From assembly GCA_045565995.1 (NCBI GenBank), contig JBJLEF010000001.1:1590182-1654181 (forward strand): a DNA stretch of 64,000 bases, given 5' to 3'. Below are positions 7,101 through 42,789 of the stretch, piece after piece (within the stretch, counting starts at the first letter, position 1; every line of letters begins with the position of its first letter). This DNA is from Pirellulaceae bacterium (GTDB lineage: Bacteria; Planctomycetota; Planctomycetia; Pirellulales; Pirellulaceae). A program made the position numbers and the translations under genes. Below the pieces are notes generated by a model that saw only the letters and a list, made by a program, of their open reading frames with translations, did not search any database and was not told the DNA's origin.

Positions 7101-10100
7101 AATGATGAATCGCTCGGACTCGACACCTTTACCTTCGCCACGGAAGCAGTTGCCGGGGATTGGGGGGGGATTCTGATCCATCATGGTGTGGACGGAGCAG
7201 ATCAAACACGGGTCGATTATGCTAAGAATGGTATCTTTCTAAACCACATTAATCATGCTGATATTCGCTATGGTGGTGGCCAGGTGCTGGTAGAGTCTGT
7301 GTCACAGATTATTGATCCAATTGAAATTGTCAACGCCCGCCCAACGATTTCACACAACGAAATCGCCTACAGTCGAGATGCTGCGATCGCGGCTAGTCCG
7401 GACAGTTTTAAAGAATCGAATTTTCATTCTCCTGAGTATCAGGAAGAATTTACGACGAATCCGTTCACAGTGGATTACAAACGAATTGGGCCGGATATTT
7501 ACGGTAACCGCGTCCATGACAATACAACCAATGGCCTGGCAATCCGTGTCGGGACTTTGTCGGGTGACTCGACTCAGAAGCTAACCGTACCGGGTCGACT
7601 GGATGATACAGACATCACGCACATCTTGCAGGAAAACCTGGTCATTGAAAGTACACCAGGTGGACCATTTGAAGAGACTCTTAGTCAATCGCTACAGTTA
7701 GTGACACTGAGTCCTCGTAGTTTAGGGGCAGACGGCTCGTTAGCTGCTGGTACCTACACGTACAAAATGGTTTTTGTAGATAAAAACGGCAATGAGAGTC
7801 TGGCAACCGATGCATCGCGGTCGGTCACGATCAGTGGTTCGGAAAATGGAACTGAATTAAATCAGCTCTTAACGGCAAGCGGAGATTTTGTTGCTCGTCG
7901 ACTTTATCGTCACGACGGTGGGGTAGGAGCCTATCAATTGATTGCGACGATCAATCAGACGGATACACGATATGTAGATGATGGTACGACGCTCAATGGT
8001 GATCTCGACGAAACCGCAACGAGTAAACTGCGGCCTCGATTCGACGCACGCTTGGCGATCGACCCTGCTGTCGTGCTGAAGCTTGACGGAGCGCATATCC
8101 ATACGGAAGTGGGCGCTCAGATTATTGCCGAAGGTCGGGATGGGCACGAAGTCGTTATTACTTCGATTTTAGATGATCGGTATGGTGCTGGAAGCACATT
8201 TGATACTTCTAATGATGGTGCTCCGATTCCAGGTGGTGTCAATGAACCCACTCCTGGTTCCTGGGGTGGTATCTATGCGGCTGCAGAAAGTATCTTATCC
8301 ATCGATAACGCGGTTATCGCTTATGGTGGCGGTGTCACACCGATTGAAGGTACCTTTACTGCCTTCAATACTATCGAAGTTCAACAGGCGAAAGCTCGTA
8401 TTGCCAATAGTATCTTTGAATTCAATGCGGGTGGTTTTGGAGGACAGGCTCCGGCTTCCCGTTATGGTCGCGGAGTGAATGAAGAGAGTGTCATCTTTGT
8501 ACGTAGCGCGCAGCCCGTCATCGTTGGGAATACTTTCCGAAACAATGTCGATGATGATTCGACGACTCGTATTTCCGCGATCAGCATCAATGCCAATGCG
8601 TTAAACCATGAGTTGTTGTTTGATTATGGTCGTAGTACCGGTGAGGCAGGTGCTTTGGGTGGCTATCGGGATAATCACGGTCCGCTCGTGATAGGTAACC
8701 GACTTAGTAACAACGAAATTAACGGGATGGTGATTCGTGGTGAGGTTCTTACCACACAAAGTATTTGGGATGATACCGACATTACCAATGTGTTGTTTGA
8801 CACGATTATCGTGCCAGACTTCCATACGTACGGAGGGTTGCGTCTGCAAAGTAATCCTACGCAGAGTCTGGTTGTTAAACTCGAAGGTGGTAATGCCGGC
8901 TTTGATGTTACCGGCCGTCCGCTGGAGATCGAAGACCGGATTGGTGGAGCCATCCAGATTATTGGCCAACCTAAATCGCCGGTTGTGATTACCTCACTAA
9001 AAGACGATTCTGCCGGTGCTGGGATTCAGCCAAATGGTGATCCGATGGTGGACACTAATAACGATGGCGAATATAACCCGGCGGATTATGTAGATCAGAC
9101 AACGACCAGGATTAACATCAATTTTGGGCCGACGATGCAAAATAATCTGGCCGCGATGCAAACAGTGCAACGTGCGGCTGATTTCTGGTCCACCGCTTTA
9201 GCCGATGATGTCACTGTAACGATCGATGCTGAGTTTGCTGCATTAGGAGCAGGCGTTGCTGGAACCATGTCACCGGTCATGGGGAATATGCTTTATGACC
9301 AATTACGTGATGTGATGATTTCCGATGCTCAGGAACATGAGATTATCGTCGGTCAGTTGCCGGTTTACCAAGGATTAACTACGGATGGTGCAGATGTTTC
9401 GGACACGGTATCGGTAACGAGGGCCAACTTGAAGGCACTGGGGGTTACCAATTTGCCTGTTTCCAATAGCCTTTTTGGGACCGGCGCGATTGATGGCATC
9501 ATGAATATCGCAGATACCTACGATAATGCTGCAGCTGACTTCCTGCAGGTTGCCATTCATGAAATCGGACATGCACTTGGATTTGTCTCAGGTGTTGCAA
9601 ATGTAGATGCCGGGGCGAGTGTGACGAATCTGACCACGATGGATATGTTCCGTCTGGCTCCAGGGCAGGGAATTAATAATTTCACCGATGCCCCACGTAT
9701 GCTTGATCCAACCAAGGATCATGTTTTCTTTGACGGCGGTCACTTTAACCCAAGTCGCATTTCAACGATTGCCGGTCTAACTCGCGGCGATATTCCTCTG
9801 TCAACGGGTGAAGCGACGGGTGACGGCTGGCAGGCAAGTCACTTTAAAAACCGTAACCTGATCAATGGTGTCTATCTCGGCACAATGGATCCGGTCGTGA
9901 ATCCGGCTGCGACGGAAAATGCGAGTGAAAATGACAAACGTGTTCTTGACTTAATCGGTTGGGATGTGATCTATGCCGGACCTGCATCGCCTGGGGATTG
10001 GAATACCGTCTTAATCGATCAGTACGCACACGACCGCAATGTAAGTGTGACTGTTGAAAATGAATCCCGCGATGTGAATGCTCCGGGCCCAAATGCGACA

Positions 10101-25134: not shown

Positions 25135-27405
25135 ATGACTATGTCTGAACATCTTGTTGAAAATCCTGAATTCGAGGACGAGCCTTCTGAACGGGAAATC
25201 CGCATCAGTAGGTTGCTAGCGGATTTTTTAAAGCAGGAAGATGAAGGAACGGCGGCTAGTCGTGAGCGATTTCTGAAAGAGAATGAAGACGTCGCTGAGG
25301 ATCTTCAAATCCTACTTGAGATGGCCGATATGATTCAGGAAATGGCAGGACCAGTTTCCGGTGATGAACTGGTCTTAGATTCCATTGGACCATCGCCAGA
25401 TCAAGGTGTCTCTAAGCCTCCTTCCCCCGTGCTTGAGGGAAACCATGGACTGGAAGGTCGTCCTGGTCATGGTGAGGATACACCAACCAACCAGGGCGAT
25501 AGCGTTGATTTCTCTTTGCCGGGTGAGTCGATACCTCCGGTCGGAAGGGACTCAAGTATGCCCGAAGGATTTACCTTCGGCGACTACCAATTGTTGGAAG
25601 TGATTGGTCAGGGAGGGATGGGAATTGTCTATCGCGCTCATCAGGCAGGTATTAATCGTGAAGTAGCGGTCAAAATGATCCGTTCAGATCGTTTCCGTTT
25701 TGATAAGGACTTAGCTCGTTTCTACAAAGAAGCACAAACTGCGGGATCAACGCAACACCCGAATATTGTGACCGTATTTGACATCGGTGATGTAAATGGT
25801 CGACATTATTTCTCGATGCAATTGATCGAAGGTGCCGATCTGGCAGCACTAAACCGCGAAAATAAACTTAGTAGTCGGCGCATCGCAGAGATTTTGAAGG
25901 ATGTTGCGAATGGTATTGAAGCAGCACATAAACACGACATCCTCCATCGTGACTTAAAGCCGGCAAATGTATTGGTGCGCGAGTCGGATGGTCAGGCGTT
26001 TGTTACGGACTTTGGTTTAGCCAAACAGGTCGAAAATGAACTGGAACTGACGCAAAGTGGTGATACCGTTGGAACGCCAAGCTATATGGCGCCGGAACAA
26101 GCCAGAGCCGATGAATCTCGTATGGGGCCGGCTTCGGATGTTTACTCGATCGGTGCCATTCTTTACGAGTTGTTGACAGGAGTTCCACCATTTAAGTCGG
26201 ATTCAATGGCTAGTACTGTTGTGGAAGTATTGCATCGTGAAGTGATACCTCCGTCGCACTTGAATGCCAAGGTGAATAAATATCTGGAGGCCATTTGTCT
26301 GAAGTGCCTCGAAAAGAATCCACAATCACGTTACGAATCTGCCAAAGAACTAGCCTCAGACTTCCAGCGTGTGCTTGACGGTCGACCTGTAAAAGCCGTT
26401 ACTGTGGGGAAATCAAGAAAGGCCATTCGCTGGGTTTGTAATGTTCCCTTCTTTGCTCGTCTATCAGGTAATCACTTCCCCAACGTGAGGCCTGCTCATC
26501 GCGTAGTTAATCATTTACTGTGGATCATTCCCGTCTTGCTTTTAGGTTGGTTCGTCTTGTGGCAAAACGTTCGAGAGAGCTATGTCCCGGATTCGATTCG
26601 TATCGGTACGGGGATGAAGGATCAGTTCTATCACCAGGTTGGACTGGAATTGCAAAACGAATTGGTTACGCATTACGATCAGCCCGCCGATATCCAGACG
26701 ACCACCGGTTCCTTAGAGAATGTTAACTTACTGAATTCCGGTGCTATCCATATCGCCATTGCGCAGCTCGAAGTGCTTGCCAATGACAATTCGATCGCTA
26801 AACTCACCCCACTCTATGCTGATAAAGTCCATGTGGTGGTTCGAAAGGGTCTGGGAATCGAAACATTAAGCGATCTCGAACACCGGGTTATTTCTTTGGG
26901 ACCTCCCAACTCGGGGATGAGAATTACGTCGGAGCGAGTCTTGGCGACACTGAATATCGATTACAACAGCATGCAACAAACCTCCAAACCGTTCCAGGAT
27001 ATGCTGACCGATTCGAGTATTGAAGCTGGTATCGTTACAACACGTACAGAGAATCAGGTGCTTCGGCATTTGCTTAATGATACCCGGTTCAAACTGATCG
27101 GTCTTACGATTCCTCAAATCAATGCATTAACTCAAATTGGGTATCATCGAGATCGGATTTCAGGTGAGGGTCTCAGTCAGGTCGAAGCGGAATTAACTTC
27201 CACGGTTGCAACAATGGCATTTTTGGTAAGTAATGCAGATGCCGGAGAGGCCTTAGTGGATCGAATGCTTAATGCCCTGTTTGAAGAACGGGACAACGGT
27301 AGTATTGCAACTCGCTTAAACCTGCTTTCGAGAACGGCAGCGAGTCAGCATCCTATTGATTTTCATCCAGCAGCATTGAGATTCTTTGAAGAATCCGAGG
27401 AATAA
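25135..27405 (+). CDS. Ser/Thr protein kinase (Hanks-type) with acidic N-terminal domain, one TM segment and C-terminal periplasmic-binding-protein-like (TAXI/PhnD-like) sensor domain
   Basis: Kinase motifs are 'IGQGGMGIVYRAHQ', 'VAVKMI', 'HRDLKPANVLV', 'DFGLAK' and 'GTPSYMAPE'. A TM segment 'LLWIIPVLLLGWFVLW' follows. The C-terminal 'NLLNSGAIHIAIAQLEVLANDN...VHVVVRKG' resembles PBP-type solute receptors. The gene directly follows the ECF sigma with a 40-nt gap. Confidence 0.85.
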   Translation: MTMSEHLVENPEFEDEPSEREIRISRLLADFLKQEDEGTAASRERFLKENEDVAEDLQILLEMADMIQEMAGPVSGDELVLDSIGPSPDQGVSKPPSPVLEGNHGLEGRPGHGEDTPTNQGDSVDFSLPGESIPPVGRDSSMPEGFTFGDYQLLEVIGQGGMGIVYRAHQAGINREVAVKMIRSDRFRFDKDLARFYKEAQTAGSTQHPNIVTVFDIGDVNGRHYFSMQLIEGADLAALNRENKLSSRRIAEILKDVANGIEAAHKHDILHRDLKPANVLVRESDGQAFVTDFGLAKQVENELELTQSGDTVGTPSYMAPEQARADESRMGPASDVYSIGAILYELLTGVPPFKSDSMASTVVEVLHREVIPPSHLNAKVNKYLEAICLKCLEKNPQSRYESAKELASDFQRVLDGRPVKAVTVGKSRKAIRWVCNVPFFARLSGNHFPNVRPAHRVVNHLLWIIPVLLLGWFVLWQNVRESYVPDSIRIGTGMKDQFYHQVGLELQNELVTHYDQPADIQTTTGSLENVNLLNSGAIHIAIAQLEVLANDNSIAKLTPLYADKVHVVVRKGLGIETLSDLEHRVISLGPPNSGMRITSERVLATLNIDYNSMQQTSKPFQDMLTDSSIEAGIVTTRTENQVLRHLLNDTRFKLIGLTIPQINALTQIGYHRDRISGEGLSQVEAELTSTVATMAFLVSNADAGEALVDRMLNALFEERDNGSIATRLNLLSRTAASQHPIDFHPAALRFFEESEE

Positions 27406-29082: not shown

Positions 29083-29766
29083 ATGAAACCTGAGCAAATT
29101 GACGAATTACTAAAACGAACTCTGGACGATCATAAAGTCTCCCGAGGTGAAAAGAAGATTTTGGATGGAATTGTGCGTGAGCACGGCTCTGCTGCGAATC
29201 AACTGGCTTTTTTACGACACCGTGCCTTTGATATGGCGCGTGAACAACTGATGAGTCCTGATGCCAAAGGAGTCCTCGATTGGCTCGAAGACGTGGTGAA
29301 AGCATTTTCCAAGACCGCGCAGGGGCCAGAGGATGAATCGCATGTCTTCTTCAGCCCTGGTGATGATTGCCCTAACGTGATCTCTAACTTGTTTGAGCGA
29401 GCCGAACAGACAGTTGATATATGTGTCTTTACGATTACCGATAACAGAATCACGCAGGCTATTCGGGATGCCTATGTACGTGGCATCAATGTCCGGGTGA
29501 TTACCGATAATGATAAGGCTTTGGATCCGGGTTCTGATGTCGACCGCATGGCTGGACTGGGGATTCCTTTGCGAGTGGATAAGTCACCACATCATATGCA
29601 TCATAAGTATGCCATTTTCGATAAGACAATAACGTTGACCGGTAGCTACAACTGGACTCGTAGTGCTGATCACTATAATGAAGAGAATTTCCTAACCACC
29701 GAAGATCCCAGTATTACGAGGCCATTCATCGGCCATTTTGAGAAACTCTGGGATTCTTTATCGTAA
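29083..29766 (+). CDS. phospholipase D-family single-HKD protein (Nuc-like nuclease/phosphodiesterase fold) with ~90-aa N-terminal extension
   Basis: One HKD motif is present: 'HHKYAIFDKTITLTGSYNWTRSA' (HxKx4Dx6GSxN). There is no second HKD copy, so it would act as a dimer like Nuc or Bfil. No signal peptide is evident. Confidence 0.65.
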   Translation: MKPEQIDELLKRTLDDHKVSRGEKKILDGIVREHGSAANQLAFLRHRAFDMAREQLMSPDAKGVLDWLEDVVKAFSKTAQGPEDESHVFFSPGDDCPNVISNLFERAEQTVDICVFTITDNRITQAIRDAYVRGINVRVITDNDKALDPGSDVDRMAGLGIPLRVDKSPHHMHHKYAIFDKTITLTGSYNWTRSADHYNEENFLTTEDPSITRPFIGHFEKLWDSLS

Positions 29767-30214
29767 CTTGGATGGGGGGGCTCGATGGGTATCTCGAGTC
29801 AGTCATCAACCTTGATGTAATAGATACAGGCTTTGGAGCCCTGACTATTTGGAATGTAAGCGAAATCGCTATTAGGTCAAACCATAGTAGTAAAGAGTAG
29901 CCTGTTGGCTGCTATCTGGAATAACCCCCGGGGTATTGGGGATATTGGAACCCCTTGGATTCTCATGTAATTCAAGGGTTTTTCTTCCAATAAATAGTTG
30001 GCATTAGCGAAGTCATTAATGTCATTGATGTGGATTATTCGCGAACGACCCTTTCATTGTCGAAAGGCAGTAGCCGGCATAATCCGCAGAACCGTCATAG
30101 ATTGGCTGTGTTTCCTGTTTTTTCTAACTAATAGAGAGAACCTAATGGTGCAGCTTTAATACTAGTGGCGATACTTGGGATGTACTTGTCCGTAAAGGGT
30201 TAATACGAAGAACC

Positions 30215-30898
30215 ATGAGTAGTGAATTAACAGAACTAGCGAATCACTTTTTTTCAGCTCCGTTGATTGTTTCAACGGGATTGATGCTATTTGTGATTGC
30301 GTACTGGGTGATTTCTATATTGACCGGTCTGGGGTTAGATGCAATTGACTTCGATCTGGACTTCGATACGGATGCGGATGTGGGTGGAATCGACGGATTT
30401 ATGGGAATCGGTTTATTACCACTCAAATGGCTGAATATCGGAGCAATTCCACTGATGTTGTGGTCTTCGATTTTTGCCGTGGCGTTTTTATTTGCTTCAT
30501 TGGGGGTTGAGCATTATCAGCCATTAACCGAGGAAGCAGCGACCGGCGTCATCGCTGTTCGTGTGATTTGGGTAATGGGTGTAGGAGCTTTAGGCACCAA
30601 ATTTATTACTCAGCCAATGCGAAACTGGTTTAAGGACCGTGCTTTGGACCATCACGAATTTATTGGCAAACAGGCCACAACTCGAATTACAACTCACTCT
30701 ACTCGTGGAAAGATATTTATCGAACGCAAAGAGGGTGATTTGATATCAGAAGCCAGGACGGCTGGAGAAGAAATCCCGAATGGAACTCGGGTAACTGTCG
30801 TGAGTTATGACGAAATTCAGAAGGTGTACATGGTTGCGGAATCGCGTTCGACGGGCGAGGAAACAATAAATAACAACGAGGAAACAAAAAATGTTTAG
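30215..30898 (+). CDS. YqiJ/NfeD-like inner-membrane protein with C-terminal OB-fold (flotillin-partner family)
   Basis: The N-terminal half is hydrophobic with TM helices. The C-terminal 'TTRITTHSTRGKIFIERKEGDLISEARTAGEEIPNGTRVTVVSYDEIQKVYMV' matches the NfeD short-form beta-barrel. Its stop overlaps the flotillin start (ATGTTTAG). Confidence 0.6.
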   Translation: MSSELTELANHFFSAPLIVSTGLMLFVIAYWVISILTGLGLDAIDFDLDFDTDADVGGIDGFMGIGLLPLKWLNIGAIPLMLWSSIFAVAFLFASLGVEHYQPLTEEAATGVIAVRVIWVMGVGALGTKFITQPMRNWFKDRALDHHEFIGKQATTRITTHSTRGKIFIERKEGDLISEARTAGEEIPNGTRVTVVSYDEIQKVYMVAESRSTGEETINNNEETKNV

Positions 30899-33110
30899 CG
30901 AGTTCCTATTCGCACAGAGTAGTATTCCTGGTGGTGGTATGACCATCACCCTGATTGCTATTGGTGCCGGGCTGTTTCTACTGCTGATTCTAGCAGTAGC
31001 CCTTAACAAGTTTTATGTCAAAGTTGGTCCGGACGAAGCTGTGATTCGTACTGGTGTCGGTGGAGTCAACGCGGTCTCTGGTTCAGGGATGTTTGTGATT
31101 CCTCTGGCTCACCAGGCAGAACGTATGGATTTGTCGGTCAAGCGAATTGAAATTAAACGTCAAGGCTCGGAAGGGCTTGTCTGTAAAGACAATATTCGGG
31201 CTGACATTGAAGTCGCATTTTATTTGCGAATTTCAGCGGATAACATGACGATGGTAGCTGCTAAGCTGGGTGCTAAACGAGCCTCAAGCCGTGACGCACT
31301 TATTGAGCTTTTTGACGCTCAGTTTTCTGAAGCATTAAAAACGATCGGTAAGAAGTTTGATTTTGTCGATCTTTATACAGAACGAGATCAATTCAAAGTA
31401 GCCATTACCGAACTTTTGGGTGACCCGGAAGATCTGCAGGGATATGAGCTAGTTAGTACTGCGATTGATTACCTTGAACAAACCCCTGTAGAAGCATTAA
31501 ACCCGTTGAATATTCTTGATGCTGAAGGCATTAAGAAGATTACGGACCTCACTTCGCGTGAAGCTATTCAGTCGAATGATATTGAGCGCGAAAAGGAAAA
31601 GGCGATTACCAAACAGGACGTCGAAGCTCGTGAAGCGATCCTGGCTCTGGAACGTCAGCAGGTTGAAGCCGAAGAACGTCAACGTCGTGAGATTGAAGAA
31701 GTCACAGCTCGTGAACAGGCTCAGGCAGCCGTTGTGAGAGAAGAAGAACGCTTACGTGCAGAATCCCGTCGAATTCAGACGGAAGAGGAACTTCAGGTCG
31801 CTGAAGAGAACAAAGATCGTCAGGTTATTGTTGCTCGTAAGAATAAGGAACGAACGGATGCTGTTGAAACGGAACGTGTGGAACGTGACCGTGGTTTAGA
31901 AGCGACGGATCGTGAACGCGTTATCGCCATAGCTGACATTGAAAAAGACAAAGCGATCGAAGTTGAGAAACGAAATATTCAGGAAGTGATTCGTGAACGT
32001 GTGATTGTCGAACGCGGTGTGGTCGAAGAGCAGGAACGTATCAAGGATACGGAACAGTTCGCAACGGCCGACCGATTGAAACGAGTTACCGTTACCCAAG
32101 CTGAAATGACTGCGGAAGAATCTTTGGTCAAAGAAGTTAAAGCTGCGGATGCCGAAAAGCAAGCTGCTGAACGTCACGCCGAACAGATTGTGATTGAAGC
32201 GGAAGCTCATCGTCAACGAGCTGAGAAAGAAACACAGGCTACCAAAATGTTGGCTGAAGCAAAAACAGCTGACGAAGCCGCTAGTGGATTGGCAGAAGCA
32301 AACGTCACTACAGCCAAAGCAGATGCTAAAGAAAAAGACGGTTACGCGGAAGCTGCTGTTATCCAGCGTAAAGCGGAAGCAGAAGCTAAAGGGCAGGAAG
32401 CAAAAGCTGTGGCAACCGAGAAACAAGGTACAGCCGAAGCAGTGATTGTTCAACGCCACGCAGAAGCAGAAGCGACTGGTATGGTAGCCAAGGCACAAGG
32501 TATCTCGAAAGAGGGTACAGCCGAGGCCGAAGTGATGCAGTTGAAATACAGTTCAGAAGCTCAGGGTATCGAAGAGAAAGCGAATGCGATGAAGCTCTTC
32601 GATTCAGTGGGGAAAGAACACGAAGAATACAAATTGCAACTTAACAAAGATAAAGAAATCGAAATCGCTGCGATTGACGCTCAACGTCAGATTGCAGAAG
32701 CCCAGTCGAATATCATGGGTGAAGCGCTCAAGAGTGCCCGCATTGATATTGTCGGTGGTGAGTCAACCTTCTTCGACCAGGTGGTCAACGCTGTGAAAGG
32801 CGGTAAGGTTGTCGATCGATTCGTGAATAATAGTGAAGTTGTCAGCGATGTTAAGGAAACATTCTTTAACGGCGATCCTGAGTACTTCAAATCTAGAATC
32901 CTTGGTATGGTCGACCAATTCGACCTCAGCACTGATGATGTGAAAGATCTTTCCATCGCAGCTCTAATCGCCAAGATGATCGGTCTCGCTCGAACGGATA
33001 CGATTCGAAATGAGTTGCAGGGACTGTTAGGGATGGCTAAAAGCACCGGTATCTCGAGTGACAAAGCCAGCACTTTCATGGCAGTAAATGCTTCTCAGGG
33101 TGATGCATAA
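30891..33110 (+). CDS. flotillin-like SPFH/Band-7 protein (YqiK/FloT-like), unusually long (739 aa) with extended EA-rich coiled-coil region
   Basis: An N-terminal TM segment precedes 'KFYVKVGPDEAVIRTGVGGVNAVSGSGMFVIPLAHQAERMDLSVKRIEIK' (SPFH start, as in YqiK). Long 'EAEAKGQEAKAV...AEAEATGMVAKAQG' flotillin-type repeats follow. The true start may be M at 30939. Confidence 0.8.
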   Translation: MFSEFLFAQSSIPGGGMTITLIAIGAGLFLLLILAVALNKFYVKVGPDEAVIRTGVGGVNAVSGSGMFVIPLAHQAERMDLSVKRIEIKRQGSEGLVCKDNIRADIEVAFYLRISADNMTMVAAKLGAKRASSRDALIELFDAQFSEALKTIGKKFDFVDLYTERDQFKVAITELLGDPEDLQGYELVSTAIDYLEQTPVEALNPLNILDAEGIKKITDLTSREAIQSNDIEREKEKAITKQDVEAREAILALERQQVEAEERQRREIEEVTAREQAQAAVVREEERLRAESRRIQTEEELQVAEENKDRQVIVARKNKERTDAVETERVERDRGLEATDRERVIAIADIEKDKAIEVEKRNIQEVIRERVIVERGVVEEQERIKDTEQFATADRLKRVTVTQAEMTAEESLVKEVKAADAEKQAAERHAEQIVIEAEAHRQRAEKETQATKMLAEAKTADEAASGLAEANVTTAKADAKEKDGYAEAAVIQRKAEAEAKGQEAKAVATEKQGTAEAVIVQRHAEAEATGMVAKAQGISKEGTAEAEVMQLKYSSEAQGIEEKANAMKLFDSVGKEHEEYKLQLNKDKEIEIAAIDAQRQIAEAQSNIMGEALKSARIDIVGGESTFFDQVVNAVKGGKVVDRFVNNSEVVSDVKETFFNGDPEYFKSRILGMVDQFDLSTDDVKDLSIAALIAKMIGLARTDTIRNELQGLLGMAKSTGISSDKASTFMAVNASQGDA

Positions 33111-33141
33111 GGCATCCGTTAGTACACCTTCGGAATGTGGT

Positions 33142-33179
33142 AGACCAGCCTCCGGCTTCGGATTGCTGGAGGTTGGTCT
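33142..33179 (+). other. stable RNA hairpin between flotillin and the AAA+ gene (12-bp stem with one G-U, 14-nt loop), not followed by a U-tract
   Basis: 'agaccagcctcc'-ggcttcggattgct-'ggaggttggtct' is seen directly. Confidence 0.4.
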
Positions 33180-33320
33180 GCGACTCCTTTCTTCCGCACC
33201 TGTCCGCCAGACCGAAAGGTCTTAGGAGAGTTGTGAGGACGAGGGCACTCCCGGTGTACCACCTGAACTTACCTTCGGATAACTATTCCTCAACGGGATA
33301 TTCATTAGAGAGTTCGTATT

Positions 33321-36300
33321 ATGGCTCAAGAAGAACAGCAGCCAGACAACACGCAGACTCCAGAGGATAATTCACCTCAGCTGGAAAGCGGTACGTATGA
33401 AATTATACGTAACCGACTCAAAAGCTTTGCCGGTGAATTACGGGATCGGCTTAACAGCCTGAACGGAGCGCGTAAGGATGTCTTTGGAGCAATTGAAACC
33501 ACGCTTTTAGGAACGGAGCGTGTGACGACCGCGCACAATTGTGTCCCTCGTGACATGATTGCTATCGGCGAGCAATTCATTTTTGGCTACAACATTCACT
33601 TTGGTCTGCGTCAAACCACGCATCCTGCAGATGTCTTCGCGGTTTACACCTTCCGCGATGGATCATTTCACACAGAAGAGTCTGATCTTCTGACCGATTC
33701 AAACTTTGAACGTGATTTTCAGGAGATTTACAAGTATTACAAAGATGCCGAATTTACGAAGTTCTTCGTGATTGGGCCTTTTGTCTATATGACTTTTCGC
33801 GTTGGTAAAGGCGTTAACGACTATAAGAGTCTAAAATGGAAGATTGAGGATAAGAAGCTCACTTACGTTGATAATCGTAGTGATCATGAAGTGGAATTTC
33901 CATCACAGCACGATTTCCCCTGGCGTCGGGCAACTCGTGACCAATTTGAAGAAGGTCGACATCCGCATGTAAGCATCGACGACCGGTTGTTCGTTGAGAC
34001 GACAGGTGGTGATCTGACCATCAAGATCGAGAACAACACGGAGTCTGGTGAAGGCATATATTCTGAGCCAGTTGAAAACCTCGATCAAACTCTTGATGAC
34101 GCCGAGATTCTTTATGCGGTTAACGGTAGTTTGATTCTGGTAAGGATTCGCCCTTATCAGGAAGAGTCTAACCGATATTTTATTTATAACGACAAGGTTA
34201 AACGTGTGTGGCGTTGTGATTCGATTGAGGAATCCTGCGTGCTGCTGCCTGATGACCATGGTGTCATCTTTGCCAATGGTTATGCACTCGCCACGGGTGA
34301 ATTTAAAGTGTTTGACACTGAGCTTCAACACTTGAAGTTCGATCGTCGACTGGATGCTCCTAATGGTGAAGACTACCTCTATGTTTTTTACTGCGAAGAT
34401 ACGGGAACATACGTCTTACTACGGTACAACCTGATCCAACAGGAAGTAGACACCCCAGTCATCTGTAATGGGACATCATTTTTCCAGGCAGGAGAAATGA
34501 TCTGCTTTCGTGCTCAGGCGGAACCTCAAAAGCACCATGCGCTGCAGATCTGGCAAACTCCGTATGTCTCAGAGGACTACGTGCTGGACACGAACACCGA
34601 TTCATTCTTATATAAAATTGGTAATAAAGATCTCGTGCGTGGGATGGCCGAGTGTTACGAAGTTATTTCGTTGATCGAAAAAGATGATAGCTATTCGGGG
34701 CTATACACGGACCTGGCGAAAGCAGCTGGCGACGTAGCGGATGCCTATTTCTGGTCCACGAATGAGGAATGCTTCAGAATTTCTGAACCACTGGCTGAAA
34801 TTCGTCAGGCTGCAGAATCAGCAATCGATGAATTCGAGAAAGTCGTTCGTGTTAAGCAGAACACTTTAGATCAAACCCGTCAGGTTGAAGCTCGAGTCAC
34901 CGAGATTCTTCGTGTCGTGCAAAACAGTCGATTTGAAAATATCGATGAATTTGTGCAGGCACTGGCGGAATTGCGGGCCGTACGTGGTGAGATTATTTCA
35001 TTGCGTGAATTACGTTACAACAATCCGGAACTGATTAACGATTTGGAATCGCAGGTTTCCGAAAGCAATGATCGTCTCAGCCAACGCTGCGTCGAGTTCC
35101 TACTGCGCGATGATGCTCTGGCTCCCTATGCCAAACGTGTGGATGGACAAGCAGATGCAATTCCGGCATTGACGAAAGTCACCGATGCCAAAGGCTTGGA
35201 AAATGAAATTTCAGCTAGTGCTTCGGAATTGGAAATGCTAATTGATATCGTCAGTAATCTGGAAATTGAGGACGCGACTCAGCGAACTCGAATTATAGAA
35301 AATATTTCGACCATCTTTGGCAAAGTGAACACTGCCCGTGCCTCCCTCAAAGGTAAAGTCAAAGACCTGATGAGTGTCGAAGGAATCGCTGAATTCAATT
35401 CTCAGATGAAACTACTTAATCAGGCGGTGGTTAATTATCTGGATATCTGTGACACTCCTCAGAAGTGTGAAGAATTCCTCACTAAAATGATGATCCAGTT
35501 GGAGGAACTGGAAGGTCGGTTTGCGGAGTTTGATGAGTTTGTTGTTCAACTGACGGATAAACGCGAAGAGGTATACAATGCGTTTGAAACTCGCAAAGTC
35601 AGTCTGGTGGAAGAAAGAAATAAACGAGCATCGTCTCTAATGAATGCGGCGGATCGTATTCTCAAAGGCGTGAAGTCACGTGTTGATAGTTTGGAATCGG
35701 TCAACGAAATCAATGCTTACTTTGCCTCTGATCTCATGATTGAAAAGATCCGCGATTTGGTGGATCAACTCAAACACCTTGATGACAGTGTGAAAGTGGA
35801 TGATGTTCAGAGTCGTCTTAAGACAGTTCGCGAAGATGCTGTAAGACAACTCAAGGACCGCCAGGAGTTGTTTGTTGATGGCGAAAACGTCATCAAGTTT
35901 GGTAAAAATAACTTCTCCGTTAATATCCAGTCATTGGACCTGACTTCCGTTCTGCGAGATGGAGAGATGTTCTATCACCTGACTGGTACAGATTTCTTTG
36001 AACGCATTGATGACGAAGAGTTGCTGGCAACTCGGGATGTTTGGCAGCAGGAAGTTATTTCGGAAAATACAGAGGTGTACCGTGGTGAATACCTTGCATA
36101 TCAGATGTTTGCCGAGTTGCACGATAACACTGAAATGTCTCTCGAGGCATTTTCAGGATTGGATGATGAGCAACGCGTAGCTGAACTCCAAAAGTTCATG
36201 GGGCCACGATATACGGAAGCCTATGCGAAAGGGGTGCATGATCTTGATGCGGCAAAGCTTGTGAAAACTTTGGCAGAGATGGAATTATCTATCGGCTTGC

Positions 36301-38624
36301 TTAGGTATCACACGAAGGCTCGTGCGTTAGCACGTCTGTACTGGGAATACTTTGGTGATAATATCCAAAAGTCGTTGCTCCAGTCACGCTTGAGTGGAGT
36401 AGGGACGATTGCGCAGCTATTCCCAAGTAGTGCCGAACAACAACAGTATGTTGCCGTGATTGAGCCGATGTTGGCTGAGTTTGTGAACTCGACAGGGATG
36501 TTTTCGGAAGACTATGTAAATCAAGCTGCCAACTATCTTTTTGAAGAATTGACAGTTAGTAATCAGTTTGTCATCAGTCGCAAAGCAGCCGAATTGTACG
36601 AAGCTTTTGAACGCCATTTAAAACAGAATAGCTTTGTCGATAAATTCAAATCCAGTGTTACAAAACTCGTCAAGAGCCCTCTGGAGCGATTCATTCTTCT
36701 ACGCGACTGGTTAGAAGCGTTTCTAATGGAAACCACCCAGGATTCGGTCGCAGATGATTACGTGAATGAACTGGCTGTGATGTTGATGAAAGGTTCGTTC
36801 AACAAGAAAAATGTCATCGACGGAACGGTTGAGCGGGTGATCAATGGGATGATTGGTAACCATGGCGTTGTCGAAAAAAATTCATATCAGTTTAATTACA
36901 ACGAATTCATCACCAAGATGGAACGTTTTGAGCGAGTGGTTGTTCCAAAATATCGTGACTATATCGATATTAAAAAAGAAGTGATCGAACGTGCTAAAGA
37001 AGATCTGCGTTTGGATGAATATCGTCCTCGGGTGCTCACGTCATTTGTCCGGAACCGTCTGATTGACGAAGTTTATCTCCCACTGGTTGGTGATAACCTG
37101 GCGAAACAGATTGGTGTGGTCGGCGACCAAAAGCGTACAGACCTGATGGGCTTACTGCTTCTGATTTCTCCTCCGGGTTATGGTAAGACGACGTTGATGG
37201 AGTATGTGGCTAATCGTCTGGGAATTATCTTCATGAAGATTAACGGTCCTGCGATTGGACATGCAGTGACCTCACTAGATCCTGAGGAGGCTCCGAATGC
37301 AGGAGCTCGCGAAGAAGTAGAGAAGTTGAACCTGTCACTTGAAATGGGTGACAATGTGATGATTTATTTGGATGATATCCAGCACTGTAATCCAGAGTTT
37401 CTGCAGAAGTTCATCTCGCTTTGTGACGCTCAAAGAAAAATCGAGGGGGTTTATAAAGGTCAGACTAAAACTTACGACCTACGGGGTCGCAAGGTTTGCG
37501 TCATCATGGCTGGTAACCCGTATACGGAAAGTGGTGAGAAATTCCAGATTCCGGATATGTTGGCCAACCGTGCAGATATCTATAACCTCGGTGAGATTAT
37601 AGGAGATACTCGGGAAGCGTTCGAAATGAGTTACCTTGAAAACTGCCTTACTTCGAATCCAGTGCTCAATAAGCTTGCGAGTCGTAGTCAGAAAGATGTT
37701 TACAATATCATCCGGATTGCTGAAACTGATTCGCAGGAAGGCGTCGAATTTGAGGCTAACTACTCGATGGAAGAAGTTAGCGAAATGGTTAGCACGATGA
37801 AAAAACTGATGCGAGTGCGTGACGTAGTGCTGCAGGTGAATCGTGAATATATTAATTCAGCCGCACAGGCTGATGACTACCGCACGGAGCCTCCATTTAA
37901 ACTACAGGGTTCGTATCGAAATATGAACCGTATTGCTGAGAAGGTTCTTCCGATTATGAACGACGAAGAGCTGGAAACGCTGATTAAAAGCAGCTACGAA
38001 AATGATGCTCAGACGCTTACAAGTGATGCCGAGGCCAATCTCCTCAAACTCTATGAAATGTGTGGTTGGATCGATGAGGAGCGCGCCGCTCGTTGGGATG
38101 ACATTAAGAAAGCCTTCGTCAAAAACATGAAGCTCCGTGGTGTCGGATCCGATGACCAATTTGGGCAGGTCGTACTGCAGATGCAGGGTTTCACGGATGG
38201 TCTGGAAGAAATACGTGAAACAATCAGTGATGGCGTAAAGGATTTGGCGACGACAAAGGCGGAGCCTGTTGTGGTCGAAACGCCAGCTGCTGAAGGAAGC
38301 GAAACTGGTGGCGGAACAGCCGAGGCATTGATGAGCCTGGCAGAGGAATTACGAGCTTATACGACTGGCGCGATTACCGTGGATGAGTCCAAAGGTGTCC
38401 AACGCGTAGCTGTAATGCATAAGGTGCCTAAATCGATCCTCAGTGTGTTGGAGAATCAGTTCCAGGTTATGAATGAGTGGATGAGGCCCATGATGGAATC
38501 ACAGCATGCCAGTGCGCAGACGGTTGAAAAGCTGAGCCAGTCTGTTGATCAATGTCTTAAGTCATATGACAGCCTCATCAGTGGCCTGAGGGGCGACGGT
38601 GACGAGATTAATGCCGAGGAATAA
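33321..38624 (+). CDS. giant (1767 aa) cytoplasmic protein with a single MoxR/dynein/midasin-type AAA+ (AAA_5-like) ATPase domain near aa 1270-1440; remainder beta-rich N-terminal domain plus long alpha-helical regions
   Basis: Walker A is 'LLLISPPGYGKTTLMEYVANRLG' and Walker B is 'VMIYLDDIQHCNPE'. The sensor-1-like 'VCVIMAGNPYTESGEKFQIPDMLANRADIYNL' parallels MoxR 'ATQNP...LPEAQLDRF'. No signal peptide or TM segment is evident. The gene is on the same strand 211 nt after flotillin. Confidence 0.6.
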   Translation: MAQEEQQPDNTQTPEDNSPQLESGTYEIIRNRLKSFAGELRDRLNSLNGARKDVFGAIETTLLGTERVTTAHNCVPRDMIAIGEQFIFGYNIHFGLRQTTHPADVFAVYTFRDGSFHTEESDLLTDSNFERDFQEIYKYYKDAEFTKFFVIGPFVYMTFRVGKGVNDYKSLKWKIEDKKLTYVDNRSDHEVEFPSQHDFPWRRATRDQFEEGRHPHVSIDDRLFVETTGGDLTIKIENNTESGEGIYSEPVENLDQTLDDAEILYAVNGSLILVRIRPYQEESNRYFIYNDKVKRVWRCDSIEESCVLLPDDHGVIFANGYALATGEFKVFDTELQHLKFDRRLDAPNGEDYLYVFYCEDTGTYVLLRYNLIQQEVDTPVICNGTSFFQAGEMICFRAQAEPQKHHALQIWQTPYVSEDYVLDTNTDSFLYKIGNKDLVRGMAECYEVISLIEKDDSYSGLYTDLAKAAGDVADAYFWSTNEECFRISEPLAEIRQAAESAIDEFEKVVRVKQNTLDQTRQVEARVTEILRVVQNSRFENIDEFVQALAELRAVRGEIISLRELRYNNPELINDLESQVSESNDRLSQRCVEFLLRDDALAPYAKRVDGQADAIPALTKVTDAKGLENEISASASELEMLIDIVSNLEIEDATQRTRIIENISTIFGKVNTARASLKGKVKDLMSVEGIAEFNSQMKLLNQAVVNYLDICDTPQKCEEFLTKMMIQLEELEGRFAEFDEFVVQLTDKREEVYNAFETRKVSLVEERNKRASSLMNAADRILKGVKSRVDSLESVNEINAYFASDLMIEKIRDLVDQLKHLDDSVKVDDVQSRLKTVREDAVRQLKDRQELFVDGENVIKFGKNNFSVNIQSLDLTSVLRDGEMFYHLTGTDFFERIDDEELLATRDVWQQEVISENTEVYRGEYLAYQMFAELHDNTEMSLEAFSGLDDEQRVAELQKFMGPRYTEAYAKGVHDLDAAKLVKTLAEMELSIGLLRYHTKARALARLYWEYFGDNIQKSLLQSRLSGVGTIAQLFPSSAEQQQYVAVIEPMLAEFVNSTGMFSEDYVNQAANYLFEELTVSNQFVISRKAAELYEAFERHLKQNSFVDKFKSSVTKLVKSPLERFILLRDWLEAFLMETTQDSVADDYVNELAVMLMKGSFNKKNVIDGTVERVINGMIGNHGVVEKNSYQFNYNEFITKMERFERVVVPKYRDYIDIKKEVIERAKEDLRLDEYRPRVLTSFVRNRLIDEVYLPLVGDNLAKQIGVVGDQKRTDLMGLLLLISPPGYGKTTLMEYVANRLGIIFMKINGPAIGHAVTSLDPEEAPNAGAREEVEKLNLSLEMGDNVMIYLDDIQHCNPEFLQKFISLCDAQRKIEGVYKGQTKTYDLRGRKVCVIMAGNPYTESGEKFQIPDMLANRADIYNLGEIIGDTREAFEMSYLENCLTSNPVLNKLASRSQKDVYNIIRIAETDSQEGVEFEANYSMEEVSEMVSTMKKLMRVRDVVLQVNREYINSAAQADDYRTEPPFKLQGSYRNMNRIAEKVLPIMNDEELETLIKSSYENDAQTLTSDAEANLLKLYEMCGWIDEERAARWDDIKKAFVKNMKLRGVGSDDQFGQVVLQMQGFTDGLEEIRETISDGVKDLATTKAEPVVVETPAAEGSETGGGTAEALMSLAEELRAYTTGAITVDESKGVQRVAVMHKVPKSILSVLENQFQVMNEWMRPMMESQHASAQTVEKLSQSVDQCLKSYDSLISGLRGDGDEINAEE

Positions 38625-40899: not shown

Positions 40900-42789
40900 G
40901 TGATGTATTACAAATATTTTTTGGCTTTCATTATTCCGCAGATTTTAAGTTTTTCCCCAATTTCTGTTTTTGCAGCCCAGAGACCAAACGTTGTTTACAT
41001 CATGGCTGATGAACTTGGTTATTTTGAACCGTCTTTTATGGGAAGTCAGACAATCCAGACCCCACGTATTGACGAGTTGGCGCGTCAGGGCGTGTGGTTT
41101 ACTCAGGGTTTGGCAGGATCTTCGGTCTGCGCCCCAACACGATGTTGTTTTTTGACAGGCAAACACTCCGGTCATACTTCTGTTCGGGTGAACGGGGGGG
41201 GGACCCCGCTGCGAAGTGAAGAGGTGACGATTGGAACCATCCTGAAGGAAAGAGGGTACGCCACTGGAGGTTTTGGGAAATGGGGATGTGGTGGCCGCGG
41301 TTCCACCGGAGTTCCTGAGCAGCATGGCTTTGACTTGTTTGTTGGCTATTATGATCAGGTTCATGCCCACAGTTATTATCCACCCTATATCATCCAAAAT
41401 AGTCAGGAGTTGAGGTTGCCTGGAAACCTTGGTGGCGATCAGGGTCAGACATATTCGCACTACGTGATTATGGATCGGGCAAAACAGTTTATTCGTGAGA
41501 ATCAGACAGAGCCATTCTTTTGTTATTTGCCGATCACTCCCCCTCATGGGATGTTCAACATCCCGGACCAGGATCCTGCCTGGGAAAAGTATCGTGATAA
41601 GGATTGGCCTGAATCCGCCAGACGTTATGCAGCGATGGTTACGATGGTCGATCGTCAGGTTGGTGAGATGATTGATCTGCTACAGGAACTGGATCTGGCA
41701 GAAAATACGATTGTATTTTTCAGTGGTGACAATGGCGGCAACGATTATTTCAAATCGGACGAGTATCCGCGTGGACTACATGGGGCGAATGTTCATCCAG
41801 AAACCGGTGAGCAGTTTCGGGGTACGAAAGGAACATTGTATGAAGGGGGATTGCGAATCCCTGCTTTGGCCTACTGGCCGGGAAGAATCGAAGGAGGCCG
41901 TGTTAGTGATCACCTCTGGTATTTTCCCGATATTCTTCCCACTCTTGCGGACATCACAGGAGCTAAAGCCCCAAAGGATATTGATGGAATTTCTTTCTGG
42001 CCGGAGTTACAGGGGAAATACTCGCGCAGAAAACAGGCTCAGCATGAATATCTGTATTGGGAAATTGGAGGGCAAAGAGCTTTGCGATTTAAACAAATGA
42101 AGGCGATCCAACCCGGTGCACAGCGTGATTGGGAACTGTACGATTTGTCAGATGATATCAGTGAATCGGTTAATGTGGCGGAGCAGCAGGGGGAGTTGCT
42201 TGAAGTGATGAAAATGTTTGCGAATTCCGCGCATACTGATGCAAGAGAGGGAACGTTCGCCGACCGCGTGAATCATGAAAAAGACCGACAGGCAAAATGG
42301 GGTTCGACGCGAGTGACTTCGTCGCCACAGAACGTTTCGAAACTGGACACTAAAGGGCTGATTGCGCAAAACGAATGTAAAATTGTAGATTTCAGCAGCC
42401 AAAGTATAGCTGGGAAGCGATTGGCTCAATATGTACTGGATGGTAATCCTCGCACGCATTGGCATACAGAATATGTTCCGGAGGTGCGGAAACAACCTCA
42501 CCACTTAGTTATCGATTTGGGAAAGCCGCGTTCTGTGACGGGTATTCGGTATCTTGCCAGACAGGATGGTGGATACAATGGTGCGATTGCCAGATTTGAA
42601 GTCTACGTAAGTCAGGATGGTGTGAAATTTGAAACACCGGTGGCAACCGGTACGTTTCAACGTAACCGGAGTAATCAGCAACAGACCTTCAGTGAGGTTT
42701 CTGCAAGGTTTGTAAAAATAGTTGCTCTCACTGAAGTTAACGGCGGTCCCTGGGCATCGGCAGCCGAGATTGGAGTCATTGGAAAGTGA
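40900..42789 (+). CDS. arylsulfatase (formylglycine-dependent) with C-terminal F5/8 type C (discoidin) domain; secreted
   Basis: A signal peptide precedes 'RPNVVYIMADELGY' and the sulfatase signature 'SVCAPTRCCFLTGKHSGHTS' (C-x-P-x-R). The C-terminal 'YVLDGNPRTHWHTEY...IRYLARQDGG' is discoidin-like. Confidence 0.85.
   Translation: MMYYKYFLAFIIPQILSFSPISVFAAQRPNVVYIMADELGYFEPSFMGSQTIQTPRIDELARQGVWFTQGLAGSSVCAPTRCCFLTGKHSGHTSVRVNGGGTPLRSEEVTIGTILKERGYATGGFGKWGCGGRGSTGVPEQHGFDLFVGYYDQVHAHSYYPPYIIQNSQELRLPGNLGGDQGQTYSHYVIMDRAKQFIRENQTEPFFCYLPITPPHGMFNIPDQDPAWEKYRDKDWPESARRYAAMVTMVDRQVGEMIDLLQELDLAENTIVFFSGDNGGNDYFKSDEYPRGLHGANVHPETGEQFRGTKGTLYEGGLRIPALAYWPGRIEGGRVSDHLWYFPDILPTLADITGAKAPKDIDGISFWPELQGKYSRRKQAQHEYLYWEIGGQRALRFKQMKAIQPGAQRDWELYDLSDDISESVNVAEQQGELLEVMKMFANSAHTDAREGTFADRVNHEKDRQAKWGSTRVTSSPQNVSKLDTKGLIAQNECKIVDFSSQSIAGKRLAQYVLDGNPRTHWHTEYVPEVRKQPHHLVIDLGKPRSVTGIRYLARQDGGYNGAIARFEVYVSQDGVKFETPVATGTFQRNRSNQQQTFSEVSARFVKIVALTEVNGGPWASAAEIGVIGK

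Follow-up and report, generated by a model that had tools for sequence, protein, structure and literature searches.

What might a bacterium do with a protein of 1767 residues that carries an AAA+ ATPase module deep in its chain and bears the NCBI product name 'DNA repair ATPase'? This question is raised by a locus in a Pirellulaceae genome, which we analysed in a window of 64 kb (the whole stretch of DNA considered here). The open reading frame is uninterrupted from its ATG start (by translation), just as an earlier note on this DNA had read it, and the encoded ATPase has no TM segment (maximum of 1.04 in a 19-residue Kyte-Doolittle window). The protein and its parts are as follows.

33321..38624, + strand: giant soluble AAA+ ATPase of the DUF3686 family (ORF, translation, Pfam)
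33435..34751, + strand: DUF3686 domain, residues 39-477, with a leading helix (23-55) and a beta-propeller of about seven blades (strands 61-412)
34605..35867, + strand: long-helix, coiled-coil-like arm, residues 429-849, with helices of 48-58 residues each (DSSP on the model)
35112-35363, + strand: DUF7902 inside the helical arm, residues 598-681 (Pfam PF25472, E=3.3e-29)
35868..37100, + strand: small beta element (about 874-895), compact helical domain (about 941-1160) and pre-AAA helices to residue 1260 (models)
37101..37730, + strand: single MoxR-clade-like AAA+ module with lid, residues 1261-1470 (motifs, model)
37167-37193, + strand: Walker A, SPPGYGKTT, residues 1283-1291, with PPGYGKTT invariant in the family
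37356-37376, + strand: Walker B, VMIYLDD, residues 1346-1352, with D1351-D1352 invariant
37731..38255, + strand: conserved C-terminal helical extension, residues 1471-1645, with the invariant block YRTEPPFKLQGSYRNMNR at residues 1520-1537
38256..38621, + strand: poorly conserved linker and terminal helix, residues 1646-1767 (pLDDT <50 at about 1644-1710; conservation 0.14-0.18)

Domain searches revealed more than the earlier note, which had recognised nothing besides the ATPase module, with Pfam PF12458 (DUF3686) matching residues 39-477 over its entire model (1-448 of 448; E=2.4e-186; 620 bits against a cut-off of 25) and PF25472 (DUF7902) matching residues 598-681; no NCBIfam family model matched the ATPase. 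The note's description of a beta-rich N-terminal stretch of about 400 residues followed by about 800 helical ones held in AlphaFold2 models, which place strands at residues 61-412 and mostly helices at 429-1260. These models, built as two monomer halves, are of moderate confidence (mean pLDDT about 72, pTM 0.45), with the propeller region mostly at pLDDT 70-87, the compact helical domain at 80-93 and model positions 704-770 (residues about 1644-1710) below 50. Conservation within the folded part is lowest at residues 1001-1160. The Foldseek comparison that the note had proposed for a predicted structure returned domain-sized matches to propellers (DCAF1 WD40, clathrin terminal domain, Vps18 and prolyl oligopeptidase) as well as MoxR-type neighbours for the AAA+ module, and the DUF3686 propeller is predicted to be a target-recognition module.

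The Walker and sensor motifs lie at about residues 1270-1420, near where the note had placed them, and are the best-conserved part of the protein. There is one AAA/P-loop module in the chain, so that the 'single' in the note's 'single AAA_5 module' stands, and the AAA_5 label is less secure, with that model passing its cut-off (23.7 against 22 bits) but PF00004 AAA scoring higher (29.9 bits) and Pfam AAA_3 giving no match on the ATPase. The alpha/beta core is followed by an alpha-helical lid, with sensor-1 at N1399 and an invariant arginine finger at R1417, and the predicted structure has a pre-sensor-1 beta-hairpin (1373-1387; strands 1373-1378 and 1381-1386), located after helix alpha3 and before the sensor-1 strand. 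A conserved loop of about 18 residues (NGPAIGHxVTSLDP..APNA, residues 1308-1328), a candidate for the helix-2 insert of the MoxR clade, precedes helix alpha2 and is not a hairpin in the model. As modelled, the module is MoxR-clade-like, its nearest structural neighbours being MoxR proteins and its nearest folds NorQ, which activates nitric oxide reductase, and CbbQ, a Rubisco activase. Neither the single sequence nor a family profile found a solved relative when searched against the PDB, the matches (Cdc48, RuvB, Rix7) being at P-loop level only. Where the Walker B consensus is hhhhDE, this family has D-D throughout, its catalytic Glu replaced by Asp, and this invariant substitution could mean slow, switch-like hydrolysis rather than processive remodelling.

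A phyletic survey of the kind the earlier note had called for recovered at least 4,317 homologues in 745 clusters at 50% identity and at least six phyla. Homologues keep an architecture of 1,550-1,930 aa down to about 30% identity, and among the matches listed PF12458, PF25472 and PF00004 occur together in 120/120. Because length and architecture are kept family-wide, constant over the 745 clusters, the frameshift or gene fusion that the note had raised as a possible artefact is ruled out. Its suggestion of an uncharacterised family survives in part: literature searches on DUF3686, PF12458, flotillin + DNA repair ATPase and YqiK + AAA+ yielded no study of this protein's function, but the family is a known Pfam entry and is described by Ravi et al. 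2024 alone.

Upstream on the same strand lie the YqiJ/NfeD and flotillin genes, the conserved company of the ATPase in related loci, together with a PLD gene and a spacer hairpin.

29083..29766, + strand: single-HKD PLD-family hydrolase, 227 aa (PLDc_2 E=1.4e-26; NucT/DrmC-like at sub-threshold scores)
30215..30898, + strand: YqiJ/NfeD-type membrane protein, 227 aa, with three TM-like segments
30891..33110, + strand: flotillin-like partner, 739 aa, with SPFH/Band_7, an N-terminal hydrophobic anchor (residues 12-47) and a long E/A/R-rich coiled coil
33140..33181, + strand: 17-bp GC-rich hairpin in the 210-nt flotillin-ATPase spacer (folding energy)

The gene order is YqiJ/NfeD, SPFH/flotillin and, last, the ATPase, with the stop of the NfeD-type gene overlapping the flotillin start by 8 nt. 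A same-strand flotillin precedes the ATPase in 60/63 loci and the flotillin, in its turn, has the ATPase after it in 57/58, a linkage that is near-obligate both ways, on the same strand, across at least six phyla. At least four loci have no adjacent flotillin, namely L010, L017 and L037, where upstream sequence is full, and L070, where 1.5 kb of opposite-strand genes lies upstream. The YqiJ/NfeD gene is present in 51/61 related loci with sufficient upstream sequence; in the window its YqiJ_N (E=1.5e-4; 22.3 against a gathering threshold of 23) and NfeD (E=6.7e-4; 20.2 against 29.1) matches fall in the expected order, both just below cut-off. PF01145 Band_7 matches the first 270 aa of the flotillin (E=8.5e-14; 52.4 bits against 23.6), whose C-terminal region is also conserved and contains an IDIVGG... 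block. A Pfam scan of the full-length flotillin gave no Band_7 match; this subfamily is missed when scanned at full length, and the association is thereby hidden from routine annotation.

Other genes join the cassette in some lineages. The PLD gene, an accessory specific to some lineages including this Planctomycete one, is the same-strand gene immediately 5' of NfeD in eight related metagenome loci and in L008, with an association spanning Planctomycetota, Verrucomicrobiota and Bacteroidota. Many Bacteroidota loci add PspA, which is bacterial ESCRT-III, and a CesT-like chaperone. Since searches of the 64-kb window with tblastn and HMMs built from the Bacteroidota genes found no homologue of PspA, CesT or the HTH protein, the cassette here is the 'abbreviated' form. 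The note's statement that no vWA protein is nearby was borne out within about +/-8 kb of the ATPase, and a comparison of 80 related loci brought up no recurrent vWA-like gene; nor did the related loci hold a further conserved neighbour cluster beyond the cassette genes.

The flotillin-ATPase spacer is strongly structured (MFE -86.8 kcal/mol, z=-4.47), and z falls below -2 in 19/27 related spacers. Its hairpin arms are unique within the window, which rules out a REP-like repeat; a terminator scan did not call the hairpin, and an Rfam search over 29-40 kb gave no match in the spacer. The hairpin is possibly an intercistronic attenuator or processing signal, and the structured spacer could end transcription between flotillin and ATPase.

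Because the ATPase gene almost always directly follows the flotillin gene, we propose that the protein is most likely an ATP-driven remodeller of the membrane scaffold that flotillin and NfeD (and PspA) would form, a role read from genomic context and predicted folds and one that we hold to be somewhat better than an even bet. A soluble mechano-enzyme of about 200 kDa would work with two upstream-encoded membrane proteins, the 3-TM YqiJ/NfeD-type protein and the SPFH/flotillin. Like those of NorQ, CbbQ and RavA, its AAA+ modules would come together as a ring, in which the invariant R1417 would act in trans, and the propellers, held out on helical arms, would dock on the cytoplasmic flotillin/NfeD assembly, or on PspA where present. 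ATP turnover may then assemble, disassemble or recycle the scaffold, or extract clients, perhaps in membrane maintenance or envelope stress, with FtsH acting with HflK/C and Vps4 with ESCRT-III as proposed parallels. Counting against this role, MoxR-family ATPases usually act via vWA partners, and there is none here; the D-D Walker B, the loci that lack an adjacent flotillin and a spacer that might terminate transcription also weigh against it.

The annotated alternative, a true DNA-repair ATPase, draws on the Pfam description of DUF3686, the NCBI product name and a weak RuvB match (E about 1e-3 to 1e-5), but that match is limited to about 35-50 residues at the P-loop, the ATPase has no DNA-binding, nuclease or SMC/Rad50 domain that we could find, its structural neighbours are MoxR chaperones and its sole conserved neighbours are membrane-scaffold genes. 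With no repair role found in the literature either, we give this reading almost no weight and consider it ruled out by the lack of both repair domain and repair context. The 'DNA repair' name is an annotation artefact unsupported by sequence or context; it probably stems from coiled-coil likeness to SbcC/Rad50-type entries and is misleading as it propagates via genome annotation. Foldseek matches to clathrin heavy chain, Vps18 and nucleoporin-type chains might instead suggest a membrane-coat-like, protocoatomer-type protein (beta-propeller plus helical repeat, a kind known from reports on Planctomycetes) whose ATPase would be vestigial. Poor query-normalised TM-scores (<=0.16, with very high rmsd) and helix geometry, the helices running 48-58 residues with no short solenoid repeats, rule this out, and it is highly implausible also for a protein whose ATPase motifs are best conserved and whose family is abundant beyond the PVC group (Bacteroidota, Clostridia, Desulfobacterota).

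A further reading is a canonical MoxR-type maturation chaperone that serves some enzyme complex with no tie to flotillin, by inserting a cofactor or by activating it; flotillin would then be a mere membrane platform. NorQ and CbbQ as nearest folds favour it, yet 160 loci show neither a vWA adaptor nor a client enzyme conserved in the neighbourhood, the propeller and coiled-coil arms would stand in for the vWA partner logic, and the linkage to one flotillin subfamily runs two ways, which we take as an argument for the scaffold as the actual partner; we regard such a chaperone as unlikely. Improbable too is an anti-phage or conflict system in which the MoxR-like ATPase senses an infection-induced perturbation of membrane or scaffold and switches on an effector, such as a PLD-family nuclease or phospholipase. 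MoxR-type ATPases are known from some NTP-dependent conflict systems, the upstream single-HKD PLD has weak DrmC, NucT and DpdK similarity here and in the closest relatives, and in some Bacteroidota loci flotillin and ATPase are separated by small inserted ORFs that look like nucleases or DNA mimics (DUF559, PDDEXK_3, DMP19). Those insertions vary by locus, however, as selfish insertions would, and the PLD is confined to 5/80 loci in one set and 9/80 in another. In PADLOC-DB v2 the PLD gene alone matches DrmC-type models, at sub-threshold scores; NfeD and flotillin have no match and the ATPase only a sub-threshold one to Csm6 (E=0.0034, no stretch above cut-off), so that for the three core genes a known defence system is rejected. 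The core proteins are also about 50% identical between phyla, unlike fast-evolving defence genes, and around the cassette the window holds a kinase, transporters and sulfatases rather than defence genes.

The scaffold-remodeller reading can be carried further, if more tentatively. Bacterial flotillins and PspA build large membrane-bound assemblies, and an ATPase that, in at least six phyla, hardly ever occurs apart from a single flotillin subfamily is the obvious candidate for the scaffold's energy-dependent step. It is conceivable, although we would sooner bet against it, that the family is the missing ATP-driven recycler of bacterial membrane scaffolds: six MoxR-clade subunits, each with a propeller-tipped arm, would form a hexamer that disassembles or reshapes flotillin (SPFH) cages and any co-encoded PspA/ESCRT-III polymers, as a non-homologous Vps4 counterpart in bacteria.

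Compared with known systems, the earlier note's interpretation as a whole is partly supported, with its likeness to midasin and dynein giving way: midasin/Rea1 and dynein heavy chains are eukaryotic and concatenate six AAA+ modules in one chain as an intramolecular ring, whereas this ATPase has one and would have to homo-oligomerise. Against NorQ, CbbQ and RavA, MoxR proteins of about 300-350 aa with a vWA partner, it is about six times larger, lacks both that partner and an AAA_3 match, is marginal for AAA_5, has D-D in Walker B and is partnered with a flotillin scaffold. It shares with HflK/C-FtsH and the prohibitin-m-AAA protease an SPFH scaffold coupled genetically or physically to an AAA+ ATPase, but FtsH is anchored in the membrane as an AAA protease of the classical clade and sits inside the cage, whereas the ATPase here is soluble, without a protease domain, of another AAA+ clade and paired with flotillin-type rather than HflK/C-type SPFH. 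With Vps4/CdvC and ESCRT-III, the Bacteroidota version of the operon has in common a candidate ATP-driven recycler beside an ESCRT-III-like PspA gene; a 2025 review (PMC7619361) states that a Vps4-like ATPase for ESCRT-III-type polymers appears absent in bacteria. The closest precedent is the 'beta-propeller + coiled-coil + AAA-ATPase' protein that Ravi et al. 2024 (mSystems 9:e00847-23, PMC11237479) described in CesT/Tir-PspA-YqiJ/YuaF-Band-7/flotillin operons, some of which, reported for some Proteobacteria, include a PLD (HKD) hydrolase. The cassette and its flotillin association are thus already described, and ours fits that description (the paper's text and its Table S3 entry, Dokdonia donghaensis) in domain order, gene order (YqiJ/NfeD, flotillin, ATPase) and occasional PLD (HKD), being an 'abbreviated operon' without the CesT-PspA dyad and, with no essential difference, a Planctomycete member. 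New beyond that work are the MoxR-clade assignment suggested by the models, the invariant D-D Walker B, the quantified two-way linkage, the PLD association in Planctomycetota, Verrucomicrobiota and Bacteroidota, and the recurrent structured spacer.

Genomic context provided the key result on the giant ATPase, revealing a near-obligate, two-way linkage to a flotillin with a membrane anchor and to its NfeD partner. The cassette in the window is arranged as follows.

30215-30898 (+): NfeD-like protein, 227 aa, with three TM-like segments; YqiJ_N and NfeD matches are sub-threshold
30891-33110 (+): flotillin-like protein, 739 aa, its start overlapping the stop of the NfeD-like gene by 8 nt
33321-38624 (+): giant ATPase, 1767 aa, a single ORF with ATG at 33321 and stop at 38624

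Scanning a single genome per species recovered at least 585 loci, and among the best 80 a flotillin homologue (37-77% identity) lay directly upstream of the ATPase on the same strand in 67; for loci with 2.3 kb or more available upstream the figure was 60 of 63, and the NfeD-like gene was present in 51 of the 61 with enough sequence. Seeding from the flotillin alignment instead gave 58 metagenome loci with at least 1.5 kb of downstream sequence, and in 57 of them the giant ATPase follows the flotillin on the same strand. All-against-all ORF clustering of the best 80 genome loci revealed no other cross-phylum neighbour family and nothing conserved downstream of the ATPase. The complete genome of Symmachiella dynata, with independent gene calls, holds the three-gene unit intact between unrelated opposite-strand genes.

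The 739-aa protein at full length has no Pfam match, and its first 270 aa scanned alone match SPFH/Band_7 above cut-off (E=8.5e-14). Beyond this lie a long coiled coil rich in E, A and R and, towards the C-terminus, a conserved block, a combination that marks the protein as a flotillin of YqiK/FloT type. The full-length miss of this subfamily is probably due to the low-complexity E/A-rich coiled coil, and the Symmachiella orthologue (5626-7713 of its locus, L081) likewise carries no precomputed annotation. Because Band_7 emerges only from a scan restricted to the N-terminal 270 aa, the flotillin-ATPase link is hidden from routine annotation. The operon context of the family is already published: Ravi et al. 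2024 (mSystems 9:e00847-23, PMC11237479) described the cassette by comparative genomics, and their Table S3 entry for Dokdonia donghaensis agrees in order and architecture.

For the ATPase itself, Pfam and AlphaFold2 models of residues 1-1000 (mean pLDDT 71.6) and 941-1767 (mean pLDDT 72.0), built from 33-sequence alignments, gave the following residue-numbered features.

23-55: helix (model)
39-477: DUF3686 (PF12458), entire Pfam model covered, E=2.4e-186
61-412: beta-rich domain (model)
429-849: very long helices, about 420 residues, then a small beta element (model)
598-681: DUF7902 (Pfam), E=3.3e-29
about 941-1160: compact helical domain (model)
about 1261-1470: one AAA+ alpha/beta core with lid (model)
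1283-1291: Walker A, SPPGYGKTT
1346-1352: Walker B, VMIYLDD
N1399: sensor-1
R1417: Arg finger
to about 1645: conserved helical extension, then a low-confidence tail (model)

These coordinates bear out the AAA+ motif positions of the earlier note, and the models agree with its description of a beta-rich N-terminus, a long helical stretch and a single AAA+ module; it was also right that a MoxR-like module sits in a protein that is oversized, uncharacterised and has no vWA partner nearby. Its statement that there are no other recognisable domains is contradicted by the DUF3686 and DUF7902 matches, and the midasin/dynein-style architecture it proposed does not hold, the models having one AAA+ core. 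Among P-loop models PF00004 scored 29.9 bits against 23.7 for AAA_5 (cut-off 22), and a sequence scan found no TM segment, marking the ATPase as soluble.

Foldseek against the PDB returned, as domain-sized matches to the N-terminal domain, exclusively seven-bladed propellers at probabilities of about 1.0 (DCAF1 WD40, clathrin terminal domain, Vps18, prolyl oligopeptidase), with low TM-scores because the query was a 1000-residue multi-domain model; on these matches DUF3686 is predicted to be a beta-propeller. In the modelled AAA+ module a two-stranded hairpin (1373-1386) precedes the sensor-1 strand as a pre-sensor-1 hairpin, and there is a conserved loop of 18 residues ahead of helix 2. The block from sensor-1 to the Arg finger, GNPYTESGEKFQIPDMLANR, we take to be similar to the MoxR/AAA_5 pattern, as a lead only. 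Neither the single sequence nor the family profile found a solved relative, both matching Cdc48, RuvB and Rix7 around the P-loop only. Across 22 sequences (31-52% identity) conservation peaked in the AAA core (mean top-residue frequency 0.77; propeller 0.51; helical parts 0.30-0.50), K1289, D1351, D1352, N1399 and R1417 were invariant, and the Walker B catalytic Glu was Asp in all members.

The family is widespread, with at least 4,317 homologues at E<=1e-10 among 5.8 billion proteins searched, and this Planctomycete gene is an ordinary representative of it. The top 120, in which Planctomycetota predominate, are about 1,610-1,900 aa and all carry PF12458, PF25472 and PF00004; one ENA protein is 100% identical and one, from a Planctomycetaceae MAG, 90% identical, which assigns the window to a Planctomycetaceae bacterium. 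With the N-terminal 490 aa as query, exhaustive HMMER searching gave 745 clusters at 50% identity; full-length members span 1,550-1,930 aa, also where identity falls to 30-35%, a conserved size that excludes a frameshift or gene-fusion artefact. The best 80 of the at least 585 loci divide into Bacteroidota (33), Verrucomicrobiota (20), Planctomycetota (17), Clostridia (5), Desulfobacterota (3), Kiritimatiellota (1) and one of unknown phylum. Searches of the accessible literature returned no paper mentioning DUF3686 or PF12458, none linking flotillin with "DNA repair ATPase", and no experimental work on the giant ATPase.

Around these core genes the surroundings vary, and the window contains the following.

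25135-27405 (+): kinase-TRAP protein, 756 aa; Pkinase E=4e-53, C-terminal TAXI/NMT1_3-type TRAP solute-binding domain E=8e-27
29083-29766 (+): single-HKD PLD-family gene; PLDc_2 E=1.4e-26, weakly NucT/DrmC-like
29952-29978: terminator-like hairpin with T-run, between PLD and NfeD
33111-33320: flotillin-ATPase spacer, 210 nt; MFE -86.8 kcal/mol, z=-4.47
33140-33181: 17-bp GC-rich hairpin in that spacer, unique in the window
40900-42789 (+): fusion of a sulfatase and an F5/8 type C (discoidin) carbohydrate-binding domain; more large ORFs lie downstream

The kinase protein, in which TIGR02122 also exceeds its cut-off, apparently couples a Ser/Thr protein kinase to a periplasmic-type ligand-binding module; the sulfatase is typical for polysaccharide-degrading Planctomycetes and bears no relation to the ATPase. 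As in the window, a PLD gene lies directly upstream of NfeD in the closest relatives, namely one genome locus (L008) and eight metagenome loci; those of the eight that include the ATPase show 53-74% identity in it. A few Verrucomicrobiota and Bacteroidota loci carry the PLD gene elsewhere near the cassette. At the corresponding position Symmachiella dynata has a divergent GDPD (glycerophosphodiester phosphodiesterase) gene (L081 4014-4793, -), which may be a coincidence or a second lipid-headgroup enzyme tied to the system. Some loci carry three further genes ahead of the cassette, one CesT_Tir_1/YbjN-like (E=3.5e-51), one for PspA/IM30 (E=3.5e-36) and a divergent one for an HTH_3 regulator (13-17 of the best 80 genome loci, all Bacteroidota; 27/80 metagenome loci), and the 64-kb window has no homologue of the three.

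Spacers of related loci (60-450 nt) had z below -2 in 19 of 27 against mononucleotide shuffles, and the window's spacer hairpin, which has no Rfam match and no call from a simple terminator scan, may serve for attenuation or processing and in this way set the flotillin:ATPase ratio. Many Bacteroidota and Verrucomicrobiota spacers hold 1-4 small ORFs that vary by locus (DUF559, PDDEXK_3, DMP19-like, DUF3592, DUF6141 or no match), so placed in these loci:

L056 7871-9771
L015 8612-9241
L020 818-1258
L026 9519-9938
L040 8528-9952

Small and perhaps selfish genes seem to have an insertion hot spot in this spacer.

We lean slightly towards a giant ATPase that remodels a flotillin/NfeD scaffold. Its single AAA+ module would oligomerise into a ring, as its structural neighbours among MoxR proteins do, and the invariant Arg finger makes sense only in trans. 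The targets of the propellers, carried on long helical arms, would be the cytoplasmic flotillin/NfeD assembly or PspA, and ATP turnover could drive assembly, disassembly, recycling or client extraction. A dedicated disassemblase is less likely than not, and with its invariant D-D Walker B the enzyme could also be slow and switch-like. A canonical MoxR maturation chaperone acting on a client other than flotillin seems unlikely, neither a vWA protein nor a client enzyme being conserved nearby. A defence system is hinted at by the adjacent PLD gene and by small nuclease-like ORFs in some loci, but we consider it distinctly improbable given that the core genes are negative in PADLOC and highly conserved, and that the small ORFs vary between loci as selfish insertions would. 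Homologues carry NCBI names such as "DNA repair ATPase" or "ATPase involved in DNA repair" (e.g. Symmachiella dynata, Gimesia panareensis); a role in DNA repair found no support here, nor did a membrane-coat protein, and we give either almost no credence.

What the giant ATPase does is relevant to the remodelling of flotillin and PspA assemblies in bacteria. PspA, band-7/FloT, NfeD and HTH regulators have been linked (Popp et al. 2022, PMC9239133), and a 2025 review (PMC7619361) describes a Vps4-like ATPase as apparently absent in bacteria. HflK/C-FtsH, prohibitin-m-AAA and ESCRT-III-Vps4 offer functional parallels to the proposed scaffold-remodelling role, although the giant ATPase falls outside all three families.
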